From: a virus
Lineage: Duplodnaviria > Heunggongvirae > Uroviricota > Caudoviricetes
Direction: 5' to 3' (one strand)
Virus record (IMG/VR): IMGVR_UViG_3300034283_001314
Length of the DNA stretch: 64,000 nucleotides
Position numbers and translations under genes: made by a program. This document shows positions 37,290 through 40,948 of the stretch, piece after piece. Within the stretch, counting starts at the first letter, position 1. Each line of letters opens with the position of its first letter. The notes under the pieces were generated by a model. The model was not told where the DNA came from and ran no database searches. It saw nothing but the letters and a program-made list of their open reading frames with translations.

Positions 37290-37321
37290 TTTGGTAAATT
37301 AAGATAATTGTTGTATCTTTG
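37290..37321 (+). promoter_or_regulatory. Consensus Bacteroidota promoter upstream of tmRNA
   Basis: TTTG(37290)-N20-TATCTTTG. Confidence 0.75.
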
Positions 37322-37345: not shown

Positions 37346-37711
37346 GGGGATGCTATGGAATTGATTGCAATGTAAATGGTAGTACCACACGTGGAGAGAA
37401 GTGCTAGTTCTCCTTAAATCTGCACAAAACAATAACTGACGAAATGTCAACTATGACTTACGATGACCTTATGGCCTTCGTAGGTATGGATTACGCTGTA
37501 GCAGCATAACCAATCCCGTACACATCATGGGACTTTAAATAGAATGTGAAACTAAGTTTACCGAAACTTTAAATCGGTTGGTGGAAAGTTGGACTAACCA
37601 TCCGACCTCAATTATTTTGGAAAGTGAATAAGATTAAACTTTATCTAAACGTGTGATATGCTGGTATTATTAGTTCTTTGTAAGACACGAGTTCGAGTCT
37701 CGTCATCTCCA
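37346..37711 (+). ncRNA. ssrA: tmRNA; tag (A)DEMSTMTYDDLMAFVGMDYAVAA* at 37438-37509
   Basis: Acceptor GGGGATG/CATCTCC-A with G3.U; T-arm acgag-ttcgagt-ctcgt; ataact before the resume codon; tag ends YAVAA-stop. Confidence 0.92.
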
Positions 37712-37717
37712 CAATAT

Positions 37718-38084: not shown

Positions 38085-38950
38085 ATAGTAACCTTGTGTT
38101 ACATAATAGCTACCGGCCGCATATGGTCGTTAAATAAACTACGAAAGTAGGATAAAGTGGGTGTATTAAGTGATACGCCGGCGGCTCCTTCCCCGTAAGG
38201 GAGAATAGCTTAAGTATGCAAGTGGGATATTATTTAGGCTTTGTAAGTGGGGGTAACACTACCATTGAAGAGTTTGAGTAACTAGGGTATTGTAGATACT
38301 TTAGTTGAGGTGGGAACACCAATAAGAATAACCCATAGAATATCAGTAAGAAGTGTAGACTTAATCCCTCTACATAATTGCGGTATTCATTATTAGAGTG
38401 GTCTTAACATCAAACTATACGAAAGGTAGTAAGATAAGACTGTGTACAGGTGGTGCTGTTACTATCCTTTTATAAATCGTACCAACGATTATAAATGAAG
38501 ATGACTCAAAATAACGCAGTAGGGATATTGCATCGAGTAGTATAGTATTTCGTTGTTCAAAAGATAACGGAGCTGGTGGCAAACCACTACTTGAATCATT
38601 CTACAAAACTAAAACTCAATTTTTTATTTCGGTATAAAAAACTACAATTAAAAATTAAGCTTAAGTGTTTGCCAGTTATAGACGAAAGGTGTGTACATAG
38701 TTAAGAGTTGTTCTTAGCCACGATACTTCCGCAAGAAGTCTGTGATTCTTTCGAAAAACTTCTAATCCCGCAAGGATTAATTAGGCTGATAGGTTTAAAG
38801 AAGCGTAGTAAAAAGAGAGTAGTTTATAACTCAAAGATTGGTTGACTCAATTAACCCACATTGAATTGGTACTACTCAAAAGGTGGTGGAAACGGAAGGA
38901 ACTAATAATCTTTCTAAAGCTGGTTCTCAATATGGAGTATTCTCATCCCT
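38085..38950 (+). ncRNA. Large ornate structured RNA, GOLLD-like (boundaries approximate)
   Basis: No ORF in the track; many hairpins with GNRA loops (ctac-gaaa-gtag, ccc-gtaa-ggg, ggtg-ggaa-cacc, acttcc-gcaa-gaagt, taatccc-gcaa-ggatta); size and location among phage tRNAs fit GOLLD. Confidence 0.6.
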
Positions 38951-39098
38951 ATTTTATTTTATCATAATGGTTAGAGTTGGTTCGATTCCAATAATGATAG
39001 CAAAGTAATTTATCGAGGCTTGTATTAACCGGAGCATGACTTGACGTGGCGTATTTTGAAGATTGATTACTTTTTTAATTCGATTATAGTTATAACAA

Positions 39099-39167
39099 AT
39101 GAAAGCATTAACATTACATACACTTTGTAGCACACCGAATCAGATTTGGGGTGGCAGAGATATGTAA
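39099..39167 (+). CDS. Putative 22-aa attenuator leader peptide MKALTLHTLCSTPNQIWGGRDM
   Basis: ATG with A-rich upstream context; stop overlaps an antiterminator arm; composition mirrors the downstream tRNAs. Confidence 0.6.
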   Translation: MKALTLHTLCSTPNQIWGGRDM

Positions 39168-39198
39168 AGTTAGGCTAGATTTATATTAAGAATTTTAG

Positions 39199-39236
39199 AA
39201 AACCCTGACTTTAATTAGTTGGGGTTTTTTGTTTTT
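39199..39236 (+). terminator. Intrinsic terminator/attenuator directly before the tRNA array
   Basis: aaaaccctgact-ttaatt-agttggggtttt then ttgttttt; tRNA-Asn starts at 39237. Confidence 0.8.
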
Positions 39237-39308
39237 GGGATGGTAGCTCAGCGGCAGAGCAGATGACTGTTAATCATCAGGTCGAGATATCGTAATTCTC
39301 CCTTCCCT
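39237..39308 (+). tRNA. tRNA-Asn(GTT), atypical T-loop
   Basis: gatga-ctGTTaa-tcatc; T-loop atcgtaa. Confidence 0.75.
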
Positions 39309-39326
39309 CAATTGTTTATTTGATAT

Positions 39327-39399
39327 GCAGATGTCGTATAATGGCTCATTACTCCTTCCTTCCAAGTAGGAGACGGAGGTTCGATTCCTCTCATCTGCT
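39327..39399 (+). tRNA. tRNA-Gly(TCC)
   Basis: gcagatg/catctgc; ctTCCaa loop. Confidence 0.85.
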
Positions 39400-39479
39400 C
39401 AAACGGTTACCAATCCGGAACACGCCTGGAAGTTTAGTGTATTAGCACACCGGGAAATGGTGATAACAAAATTGGAAAT

Positions 39480-39552
39480 TGTCGGATGGTGTAATTGGTC
39501 AGCACAATAGATTTTGATTCTATTAGTTTTGGTTCGAGTCCAGGTCCGATAA
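39480..39552 (+). tRNA. tRNA-Gln(TTG)
   Basis: ataga-ttTTGat-tctat. Confidence 0.85.
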
Positions 39553-39557
39553 CAAAA

Positions 39558-39631
39558 TGGGAATTAGCGTAGTCCGGTATCGCGCTAGCTTTGGGAGCTA
39601 GAGGCCGTAGGTTCGAATCCTGCATTCCCAA
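39558..39631 (+). tRNA. tRNA-Pro(TGG)
   Basis: ctagc-ttTGGga-gctag. Confidence 0.9.
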
Positions 39632-39636
39632 CATAT

Positions 39637-39709
39637 AGGAATATAACTCAGCTGGTAGAGTGCTAATCTGATACGTTAGATGTCACAAGTTCGAATCTTG
39701 TTATTCCTA
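39637..39709 (+). tRNA. tRNA-Ile(GAT)
   Basis: ctaat-ctGATac-gttag. Confidence 0.88.
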
Positions 39710-39715
39710 CACACA

Positions 39716-39786
39716 TCCGGTTTGGTGCAATGGTAGCATGTAGGTCTCCAAAACCTTTGATTACAGTTCGAGTCTGTAAACCGGTG
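39716..39786 (+). tRNA. tRNA-Trp(CCA)
   Basis: aggt-ctCCAaa-acct. Confidence 0.88.
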
Positions 39787-39791
39787 CAAAT

Positions 39792-39864
39792 AGTTTCATA
39801 GTGAAATGGATTATCACACAACACTACGAATGTTGGATTGTGGGTTCGAATCCTACTGAAACTA
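39792..39864 (+). tRNA. tRNA-Arg(ACG)
   Basis: caaca-ctACGaa-tgttg. Confidence 0.88.
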
Positions 39865-39870
39865 CAATAA

Positions 39871-39941
39871 GGTGAGTTGTCCGAGTGGCTAGGGGGAGGT
39901 CTGCAAAACCTCTTACATTGGTTCGAATCCAATACACACCT
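39871..39941 (+). tRNA. tRNA-Cys(GCA)
   Basis: gaggt-ctGCAaa-acctc; U73. Confidence 0.88.
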
Positions 39942-39948
39942 CGAAAAT

Positions 39949-40020
39949 GTTGAGCGTAGCCTAATGGTAGGGCAAAAGTTTGTGGCACTTTGTGTGTGGG
40001 TTCGATTCCCATCGTTCAAC
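39949..40020 (+). tRNA. tRNA-His(GTG) with encoded G-1 and C73
   Basis: aaagt-ttGTGgc-acttt. Confidence 0.88.
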
Positions 40021-40025
40021 CAATC

Positions 40026-40110
40026 GGAAAGATGGGTGAGGGATTTAAACCAGCAGTTTACTAAACTGCCGACTGTTAAAGGTCCGTGAGTTCGAATCTC
40101 ACTCTTTCCG
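40026..40110 (+). tRNA. tRNA-Ser with unusual ACT anticodon
   Basis: gcagt-ttACTaa-actgc; long variable arm; G73. Confidence 0.85.
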
Positions 40111-40117
40111 CATAAAT

Positions 40118-40192
40118 ACCGGTATGGCGGAATTGGCATACGCAGTGGTCTTAGAAGCCATACAATTATAGGTTCGAATCCTATTACCGGTA
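40118..40192 (+). tRNA. tRNA-Leu(TAG) with short variable region
   Basis: gtggt-ctTAGaa-gccat; 75 nt. Confidence 0.8.
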
Positions 40193-40250
40193 CAAAATGT
40201 ACTTTTTTTCGATTTTATCAAAAGTCCCAAAATTTTTTTGAGGGAAATTT

Positions 40251-40282: not shown

Positions 40283-40400
40283 AGATATAAGGTTGATTGG
40301 GAAACTAAATAGGAAACTATGGCGTGAGGAGGGTAAAATCCAAAGTAATGCCAATCATAAAAGTAGTCGTCCACGCACCCATCTTCTACTTTCCTTAAAT

Positions 40401-40472
40401 GCTCAGTTCGACTAAGGGTTAGGTCACATCCCTTTCACGGATGTAATACGGGTTCGAATCCCGTACTGAGTA
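40401..40472 (+). tRNA. tRNA-Glu(TTC)
   Basis: catcc-ctTTCac-ggatg. Confidence 0.9.
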
Positions 40473-40477
40473 CAATA

Positions 40478-40550
40478 GCCCGAGTAGCTCAGCTGGTAGA
40501 GCAACTGATTTGTAATCAGTAGGTCGTAAGTTCGATTCTTATCTTGGGCT
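40478..40550 (+). tRNA. tRNA-Thr(TGT)
   Basis: actga-ttTGTaa-tcagt. Confidence 0.9.
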
Positions 40551-40624
40551 CAAAAAGTTCCGAGCTTTGCAAGGCTAAAGTAATGATGTACACATTACAC
40601 GATAGGAAGGGAAACCTATCAAAA

Positions 40625-40698
40625 GGAGTGGTAGTTCAGTTGGTTAGAATGCTGCCCTGTCACGGCAGAGGTCGCGGGTTCGAATCCCGTCCACTCCG
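40625..40698 (+). tRNA. tRNA-Asp(GTC)
   Basis: ctgcc-ctGTCac-ggcag. Confidence 0.92.
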
Positions 40699-40703
40699 CA
40701 ATC

Positions 40704-40775
40704 GGTCTGTTAGTTAAATGGATATAACTTCTCACTTCTAATGAGATGTTCGTGGTTCGATTCCACGACGGACTA
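40704..40775 (+). tRNA. tRNA-Arg(TCT)
   Basis: tctca-ctTCTaa-tgaga. Confidence 0.88.
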
Positions 40776-40827
40776 CGTGGGTTTCGGTGATGAAGCCATA
40801 AAGAGAGATAGATGTTTCTCATTCACT

Positions 40828-40864
40828 AAAATAGGTAGGTGATTCCACACCTGCTTATTTTTTT
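40828..40864 (+). terminator. Intrinsic terminator
   Basis: aaaataggtaggtg-attcca-cacctgcttatttttt. Confidence 0.7.
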
Positions 40865-40867
40865 ATT

Positions 40868-40941
40868 GGGAATGTAGCTCAGTTGGTTAGAGCAAATGAC
40901 TCATAATCATTAGGTCTTTGGTTCGAACCCAGACTTTCCCA
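40868..40941 (+). tRNA. tRNA with CAT anticodon (elongator Met or lysidine-modified Ile2; not resolved)
   Basis: aatga-ctCATaa-tcatt. Confidence 0.85.
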
Positions 40942-40948
40942 CAAAGTA

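Follow-up and report, generated by a model that had tools for sequence, protein, structure and literature searches.

The locus described here raises the question of what a short open reading frame (ORF) and a terminator are for when they stand directly ahead of a block of transfer RNA (tRNA) genes in a phage genome. To our knowledge, the regulation of phage tRNA genes is hardly known. The DNA in question is a stretch of 64,000 nucleotides (nt) from a virus of the Caudoviricetes (IMG/VR record IMGVR_UViG_3300034283_001314), the whole of which is called the window below. A first-pass annotation of the window had likened a 22-codon ORF ahead of 11 tRNA genes to the attenuators of the trp/his type. 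Our analysis supports that reading through conservation of the ORF, through RNA helices with compensating base changes and through a model in which a ribosome masks part of the RNA. From this evidence we consider it likely that the element is a ribosome-mediated (leader-peptide) transcription attenuator of the first tRNA block.

The leader ORF and its alternative RNA pairings

The features on which the argument depends are listed here. R1 to R4 designate segments of the RNA, and A1 is an alignment of 34 distinct leaders.

39099-39167, + strand: leader ORF, 22 sense codons and TAA (ATG at 39099, TAA at 39165-39167), with 16 different amino acids
39103-39120, + strand: segment R1, codons 2-8, core TTAAC at 39108-39112; putative anti-antiterminator with R2 (minimum-energy folds, duplexes, base exchanges)
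39122-39159, + strand: internal hairpin of the R1:R2 domain, with pairing between the Pro codon CCG and the Trp codon TGG, both of them invariant (folds, A1)
39164-39175, + strand: segment R2, putative antiterminator 5' strand, including the stop codon at 39165-39167; pairs with R1 or R3
39199-39210, + strand: segment R3, terminator 5' arm (terminator scan, folds, duplexes, covariation)
39217-39236, + strand: segment R4, terminator 3' arm (39217-39228) running into a T-run that ends at 39236 (terminator scan)
39237-40193, + strand: first tRNA block, 11 genes in the order Asn, Gly, Gln, Pro, Ile, Trp, Arg(ACG), Cys, His, Ser(ACT), Leu(TAG) (ARAGORN and Rfam)

The ORF has the composition first ascribed to it, with 16 types of amino acid in 22 codons; codons 7-20 cover every one of the 11 amino acids that the first block serves, Phe, Val and Tyr are missing from the peptide and from the window tRNAs alike, and Glu has a tRNA without having a leader codon. 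We add that Lys and Ala, which the annotation had passed over, occur in the peptide without a matching tRNA in the window. When stretches of 22 residues were drawn from the phage's own proteins, 1 of 15,258 covered all 11 block amino acids, as did 1 of 100 small ORFs (20-24 codons) in the window, and the chance of such coverage under independent draws is 1.4e-4. The composition match is thus better than that of random short ORFs (P about 1e-4; 1 of 100 small ORFs). With the phage's own proteins as null, the probability of 16 distinct residues among 22 is 0.016. A Shine-Dalgarno-like core was found for 7 of the 53 genes of the window, the upstream regions being A-rich, like that of the leader ORF; since these cores are so scarce, the lack of one ahead of the leader is no objection to it. 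The scarcity fits a Bacteroidota-like or cyanobacterial host.

A terminator scan of the window picked out the hairpin 39196-39231 plus its T-run. The terminator (39199-39236) lies directly 5' of tRNA-Asn, as annotated, and because the last base of the T-run (39236) is directly followed by the first of the tRNA (39237), there is no space for a promoter between the two. Also, the 10-base-pair (bp) pairing of 39165-39174 with 39204-39213, on which the first-pass annotation had built its antiterminator, proved to be real, with one G-U pair (RNAduplex, -12.0 kcal/mol). The segment 39090-39240 as a whole folds far better than shuffled sequences (z = -5.98), into two hairpins, one extending over the whole ORF, so that its start pairs with the stop region, and the other being the terminator.

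Related loci were gathered in two ways. Searching IMG/VR by way of the flanking AAA ATPase and of an ORF downstream gave 35 loci; in some of these contigs the segment 38900-39320 is 94-98% identical to that of the window while the flanking proteins share just 67-83%, and remoter contigs retain the leader ORF in a longer form. A DNA pattern that fixed only the first 13 codons of the leader was then run on IMG/VR and metagenome contigs. It matched 35 stretches in IMG/VR, comprising 28 true units and 7 copies of one chance sequence, and at least 120 stretches in metagenomes, with at least 60 true units and with 60 of the matches listed being chance. A 21-codon look-alike in L039, L040, L043, L048, L056, L068 and L069 was rejected as a chance match inside a 365-codon gene in another frame. 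The matches listed from the two sources include 38 distinct leader peptides; this count, and that of 29 long leaders given below, rest on the matches listed, the metagenome set being a lower bound. A search of related phages for a short ORF and a terminator ahead of tRNA arrays had been suggested as a check, and both were found in all true units. Every true unit listed has the same order, namely an A/T box, the ORF, a hairpin with T-run and a tRNA array, with tRNA-Asn or tRNA-Tyr as the first gene of the array, and the terminator hairpin ends 0-10 nt 5' of the first tRNA in all relatives listed. The contigs reach 237 kilobases, and the relatives are therefore large phages. Among isolated phages we found no close relative, the 3-kilobase region matching tRNA genes only; the nearest isolate by DNA polymerase, Microcystis phage Mel-JY01 (51% identity), retains the synteny of the AAA ATPase and the polymerase and has one tRNA at that place, with no array and no leader.

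The same four segments were recovered in the minimum-energy folds of 16 variants and in a duplex search of 46 distinct sequences. Across variants, R1 lies in codons 3-6 (core TTAAC or TTGAC) and R2 in the 3' part of the ORF (a GTTAGG-like sequence). Since R1 is similar to R3, and R2 to R4, two states are open to the RNA: R1:R2 together with R3:R4, or R2:R3; the latter, antiterminated pairing is the minimum-energy fold in L062, L038 and L059. In A1, the R3:R4 terminator helix is paired in 97.3% of cells, as compared with 24-73% for slid controls, and the R2:R3 antiterminator helix in 94.9%, as compared with 20-64%. Each of these helices has 3 pairs changed on both sides, and in neither case did any of 500 shuffles reach the covariation score. 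The exchanges in R2:R3 are GC (25) for AU (7) at one pair, and UA (16), UG (12) and CG (4) at another. The expectation that the stems would covary was thus borne out for terminator and antiterminator. A third pairing, R1:R2, in which codons 3-6 pair with the antiterminator strand, was absent from the first-pass annotation and shows compensating changes as well: in its 7-bp core one position is A-U (14), G-C (3) or G-U (2), and another is C-G (11), U-A (2) or U-G (3).

Three helices with compensating changes show a switch and not its trigger, and the internal hairpins are conserved too. These observations could therefore suit an RNA switch independent of ribosomes, its helices answering a protein, a small molecule or, as in a T-box, uncharged tRNA, with no sensing by the ORF. 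So could the position of R2 in the longer leaders, which is not always under the terminating ribosome. We regard such a switch as unlikely. R1 consists of codons 3-6, straight after an invariant ATG; the region 39000-39240 matched none of the Rfam leader families (Trp, His, Leu, Thr, Leu/Phe, Bacteroid-trp and others), the T-box riboswitch model or any other Rfam model at E up to 1; and, in the absence of translation, the presence of all 20 amino acids in many leaders and the complementary placing of their rare residues, which are described below, go unexplained. Also, the reading frame itself is kept. It is open in 38 of the 38 variants listed, which span 22-47 codons, and in A1 no leader departs from the ATG, and gaps within the ORF have lengths divisible by three. 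The two other frames of the leader close within 0-14 codons, and in dinucleotide shuffles the frame stays open in just 3-7%. The conservation of the ORF, on which the first-pass annotation had staked its reading, is thus that of an open frame.

Conservation of the ORF, together with an N-terminal motif, Met-Lys-x-Leu-x-Leu-His-Thr, that recurs in A1 with synonymous changes at Leu6 and Thr8, might instead point to a small protein gene followed by an ordinary terminator, the tRNAs being transcribed by read-through or from elsewhere. This explanation seems to us quite improbable. Variability at codon positions 1, 2 and 3 is 0.54, 0.71 and 0.69 bits, so that the third position shows no excess of change, and the C-terminal half of the leader is freely swapped among variants or has been removed, by three independent deletions. 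The peptide had no significant match in Pfam or PHROGs, and a small protein leaves unexplained both the covariation of an ORF segment with the terminator's 5' arm and the presence of all 20 amino acids. A frame that stays open while its residues are interchangeable is predicted for a sensing leader and not for a functional small protein.

Amino-acid composition of the leaders

The longer leaders of 38-47 codons, 29 of them distinct among the matches listed, contain 20 amino acids in 22 cases and 19 in the other 7. Examples are as follows.

L156:701-814, + strand: long leader, 38 codons
L063:7555-7671, - strand: long leader, 39 codons
L042:7176-7301, - strand: long leader, 42 codons
L038:2942-3070, + strand: long leader, 43 codons
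L067:13775-13915, - strand: long leader, 47 codons

Judged by these sequences, the ORF of the window is a shortened derivative of an ancestral leader of 38-47 codons that held all 20 amino acids. With stretches of the phage's own proteins as null, the probability of 20 distinct residues is 0.002-0.01 and that of at least 19 is 0.02-0.06. Leader-RNA shuffles that stay open have a mean of 16-18 residue types, and they reach the observed number or more with a probability of 0.0025-0.06; RNA composition thus accounts for part of the diversity and not for all of it. Because the variants are related to each other, we also shuffled alignment columns among the 29 peptides. Only 7 missing residue types were observed, as compared with 33.1 +/- 3.8 in the column shuffles, the minimum in 3000 of them being 20; one variant, for example, has no Cys (6.4 expected) and one has no Arg (8.2 expected). 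A variant that lacks Cys, Arg, Asp or Tyr at one position has that residue at a different one, and such complementary placing of rare residues is as expected if every lineage is selected to retain at least one of each.

The long leaders of the relatives, with their 19-20 amino acids, do not bear out the proposal that the leader is tailored to its tRNA block, and pan-amino-acid is a better description of the design than block-matched. The related suggestion that leader composition tracks tRNA content holds only loosely. It stands for the window, where the residue-by-residue match of leader and array is good, and for the long leaders, since leaders with all 20 amino acids stand ahead of arrays that serve 19-20; it fails in L054, L186, L042 and L058, to which we return below. 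Short leaders arose three times, each by a different deletion in the stretch that separates the internal hairpin from R2.

39099-39167, + strand: short leader of the window clade, 22 codons
L186:8919-8996, - strand: short leader, 26 codons
L054:2487-2579, + strand: short leader, 31 codons

All three of these lineages have arrays without Val, Phe and Lys tRNAs, and sometimes without Tyr tRNA, which ties leader length to array size. A possible joint gain of tRNA-Tyr and a Tyr codon was set aside, with one case for it (L001/L066, in which both were gained, the codon by a change of GGT to TAT) and one against it (L058). Likewise, a match of the leader to block-1 anticodons at the level of codons was unsupported, Leu TTA/TTG, Arg AGA and Gly GGC/GGT being dominant. 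The enrichment of rare G-ending codons (CCG, GTG, ACG) in the leader may reflect the stems.

Proposed mechanism

All of the structural features of a leader-peptide attenuator that we looked for were found: an ORF, a terminator, an antiterminator and an anti-antiterminator whose 5' strand lies in the ORF. The codons also match the regulated product, with 11 of 11 block amino acids in the window and with 19-20 amino acids in long forms ahead of arrays of 19-20 types. We propose that transcription would start just 5' of the ATG and that the ORF would be translated while RNA polymerase advances. In the absence of a ribosome, or after a smooth run of the ribosome to the stop codon, R1 (codons 3-6) would pair with R2, which in the window would additionally be covered by the terminating ribosome; the R3:R4 terminator would then form, and transcription would end in the T-run one base before tRNA-Asn. 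If an aminoacyl-tRNA were scarce, a ribosome would stall in the ORF, and R1 would be covered by stalled or possibly queued ribosomes. R2 would then pair with R3, the terminator would be barred and the 11 tRNAs would be transcribed. The outcome would be a negative feedback on the phage's tRNA supply. With an ancestral leader holding all 20 amino acids in 38-47 codons, such a switch would read decoding capacity for nearly every amino acid; the deletion derivative in the window (16 amino acids) would still include every amino acid of the block that it gates.

We examined these steps in a ribosome-mask model, in which the 30 nt under a ribosome were blocked and the RNA made before R4 was folded at equilibrium. 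For the window, R1:R2 formed when no ribosome was present. R2:R3 formed with the P site at codons 1-19 and was blocked at codons 20-22 and at the stop, in agreement with the polarity that the first-pass annotation had suggested.

Several points weigh against the attenuator, and they concern the switch, the composition and the match to the tRNA set. As to the switch, complementarity of R2 and R3 falls short of significance when the window is taken by itself (P = 0.057, dinucleotide shuffles), and for this reason the support for that helix comes from the relatives. The equilibrium model predicts R2:R3 for the long forms even when no ribosome is present; in these forms R2 ends 10-28 nt 5' of the stop codon, so that it is not in every case under a terminating ribosome; and mid or late stalls in the long ORF leave R1 outside the footprint of one ribosome, so that a queue must be assumed. 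As the equilibrium model is not clean for these forms, their outcome must depend on the order of co-transcriptional folding, and perhaps on queues, and the co-transcriptional kinetics are themselves something that we infer. The same is true of translation of the ORF, of termination and read-through at the leader, of the promoter at 39085-39092, of the polarity of the switch and of its physiological trigger. As to composition, part of the amino-acid diversity follows from the RNA composition alone, as seen in the 16-18 types of the open shuffles, and the per-sequence probabilities given above are not simply to be multiplied, the variants being related. As to the tRNA set, the residue-by-residue match of leader and array is poor in L054 and L186, L042 has a 20-amino-acid leader with a 17-amino-acid array, and L058 has tRNA-Tyr heading its array and no Tyr codon in its leader. 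Also, many leader codons, such as Leu TTA/TTG, Arg AGA and Gly GGC/GGT, are not read by block-1 anticodons.

We are evenly divided on a wider proposition, that this family of large, as yet uncultured phages has a general sensor of decoding capacity, in which selection maintains a leader with all 20 amino acids and in which almost any tRNA shortage or cleavage would lead to transcription of a near-complete tRNA set. A link of the switch to anticodon nucleases is speculation.

Boundaries of the unit, its neighbours and known attenuators

The leader ORF and switch lie between a GOLLD RNA and the first tRNA block, in a region with the following further features.

37346-37712, + strand: transfer-messenger RNA (tmRNA) (ARAGORN/Rfam)
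from 37718, + strand: tRNA-Met (ARAGORN/Rfam)
38533-38949, + strand: GOLLD RNA, Rfam RF02032 (276.8 bits, gathering threshold 150; E = 6.6e-79)
39085-39092, + strand: promoter-like A/T box, TATAGTTA here and TATATTTA or TATAYTTAT in relatives, with an A/T tract before it; kept in relatives
40190-40209, + strand: weak hairpin (5 bp) with a T-run of 7 where the first block ends (read from the sequence; below the terminator-scan threshold)
40401-40942, + strand: second tRNA block, five genes, Glu, Thr, Asp, Arg, Met (ARAGORN and Rfam)
41415, + strand: tRNA-Ser (ARAGORN and Rfam)

The GOLLD RNA is just 150 nt upstream of the ORF, and GOLLD genes adjoin tRNA islands, which is all that the GOLLD papers remark on in this regard (bioRxiv 10.1101/2024.12.08.627333; PMC6582537). 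The hairpin and T-run ahead of tRNA-Asn might accordingly be no more than a terminator or insulator of an upstream tmRNA/tRNA-Met/GOLLD unit, the ORF having arisen by chance in a structured spacer. We think this very improbable. The upstream context varies among relatives, the unit following the end of a GOLLD RNA in some and the end of a protein gene or other sequence in many, yet the A/T box, the ORF and the switch are retained; a possible hairpin with T-run is present already between GOLLD and the ORF; and the conservation of the ORF and the covariation count against a plain terminator as well. In all relatives listed, an A-tract and a TATAYTTAT-like box lie 6-20 nt 5' of the ATG. As the box stays while the upstream contexts differ, the leader-tRNA unit probably has a promoter of its own and is not a tail of the GOLLD transcript. 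The box resembles the Bacteroidota -7 motif TAnnTTTG, which precedes tRNA-Glu in relatives. A promoter-consensus search of the window gave 3 matches with 1.5 expected, and a sigma-70 scan of the window found sites no more often than by chance.

The first-pass annotation had the switch gate the tRNA array, and this part of its proposal stands for the first block; the second (Glu, Thr, Asp, Arg, Met) would not be under this switch alone, as it lies behind a conserved promoter-like box, TAnnTTTG in many relatives, and probably has its own promoter. Moreover, in L041, L054, L060, L063, L126 and L186 a conserved 61-codon gene, missing from the window clade, occupies a long gap between tRNA-Leu(TAG) and tRNA-Glu. 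Because of this box and, in several relatives, this gene between the blocks, the attenuator would gate block 1. The hairpin and T-run at 40190-40209 are, tentatively, a possible end of that transcription unit.

A conserved RNA element, 40289-40399, lies between the promoter-like box and tRNA-Glu. A 16-codon ORF at 40349-40399 was considered as a second leader and rejected, since its ATG is lost in L042, L046 and L066 while the DNA is conserved; for the same reason the element is taken to be non-coding RNA. Just 5' of the tRNA-Met of the second block there is a second strong terminator-like hairpin (40828-40861), which follows a conserved segment (region 40777-40867); a 5-codon mini-ORF ahead of it is not conserved and is thus no second leader. 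In L036, L041, L042, L049, L163 and L186, and not in the window, a conserved hairpin-like RNA of about 100-110 nt, with complementary ends GCCGG...CCGGC, stands after tRNA-Ala and before tRNA-Met.

Some further observations concern the neighbouring RNA genes. The tmRNA, tRNA-Met and GOLLD RNA form a cluster just 5' of the switch, and a TAnnTTTG box of the Bacteroidota -7 type (37314-37321) lies 25 nt 5' of the tmRNA. The published GOLLD env-38 RNA is likewise located 3' of a tRNA-Met (bioRxiv 10.1101/2024.12.08.627333). Immediately 3' of the GOLLD match, at 38959-39000, there is a tRNA-like minihelix, made up of an acceptor-like stem of 7 bp and a T-arm that carries the GGTTCGATTCC motif; it has no D arm or anticodon arm and was not called by ARAGORN. 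Within the first block, a 79-nt insert (39401-39479) separates tRNA-Gly from tRNA-Gln in the window and in L012; L014 and L032 are without it, the gap there being 4 nt. This insert could be the remnant of a decayed tRNA, or else a small element that was inserted there. The anticodon of tRNA-Ser (40026-40111) is ACT in the window and several relatives and GCT in other relatives (L038, L063 and L081 were examined), from which we take the A34 form to be a recent G-to-A change.

The ilvGMEDA leader (Ile/Leu/Val) and the thr leader (Thr/Ile) are multivalent enterobacterial attenuators of amino-acid operons. The proposed phage attenuator is similar to these in its short translated leader, in its 1:2, 2:3 and 3:4 pairings, in having a terminator before the regulated genes and in sensing more than one amino acid. 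However, the enterobacterial leaders sense two or three amino acids via runs of repeated codons and control biosynthetic enzymes, whereas the phage leader has about one or two codons for each of up to 20 amino acids and has tRNA genes as its target; the leaders also show no sequence similarity to each other, and the phage leader matches no Rfam leader family. With regard to trpL and hisL, the window is similar in that the stop codon lies inside segment 2, so that a ribosome there would favour the terminator and an upstream stall would free segment 2 for segment 3. In contrast, trpL and hisL sense one amino acid via tandem codons in segment 1, while the regulatory codons of the phage leader are spread over the ORF, and in the long phage leaders segment 2 lies 10-28 nt 5' of the stop. 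The pheST attenuator (pheM leader) and the T-boxes also place genes of the decoding machinery under premature termination governed by charged-tRNA supply; the pheM leader senses Phe only, the T-boxes bind uncharged tRNA without a ribosome, and neither controls tRNA genes. The literature that we searched contained no description of leader-peptide attenuation controlling tRNA genes. The proposed switch differs from the known attenuators in three respects: it would act on tRNA genes, it belongs to a phage, and it would sense as many as all 20 amino acids.

For about 50 years it has been debated what phage tRNA genes are for, and two ideas are current: codon compensation, and evasion of defences that target tRNA (PMC10264068, PMC11555353). 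An attenuator ahead of a tRNA block would make this question testable. If our proposal is true, the phage gauges decoding speed directly and its tRNA supply is driven by demand, which would be a possible automatic response to host codon mismatch, to starvation or to defence nucleases that cut tRNA. As a natural sensor of small size, a leader with all 20 amino acids could be put to use again in synthetic biology, and it would widen attenuation from the sensing of one or a few amino acids to the sensing of overall translation capacity.

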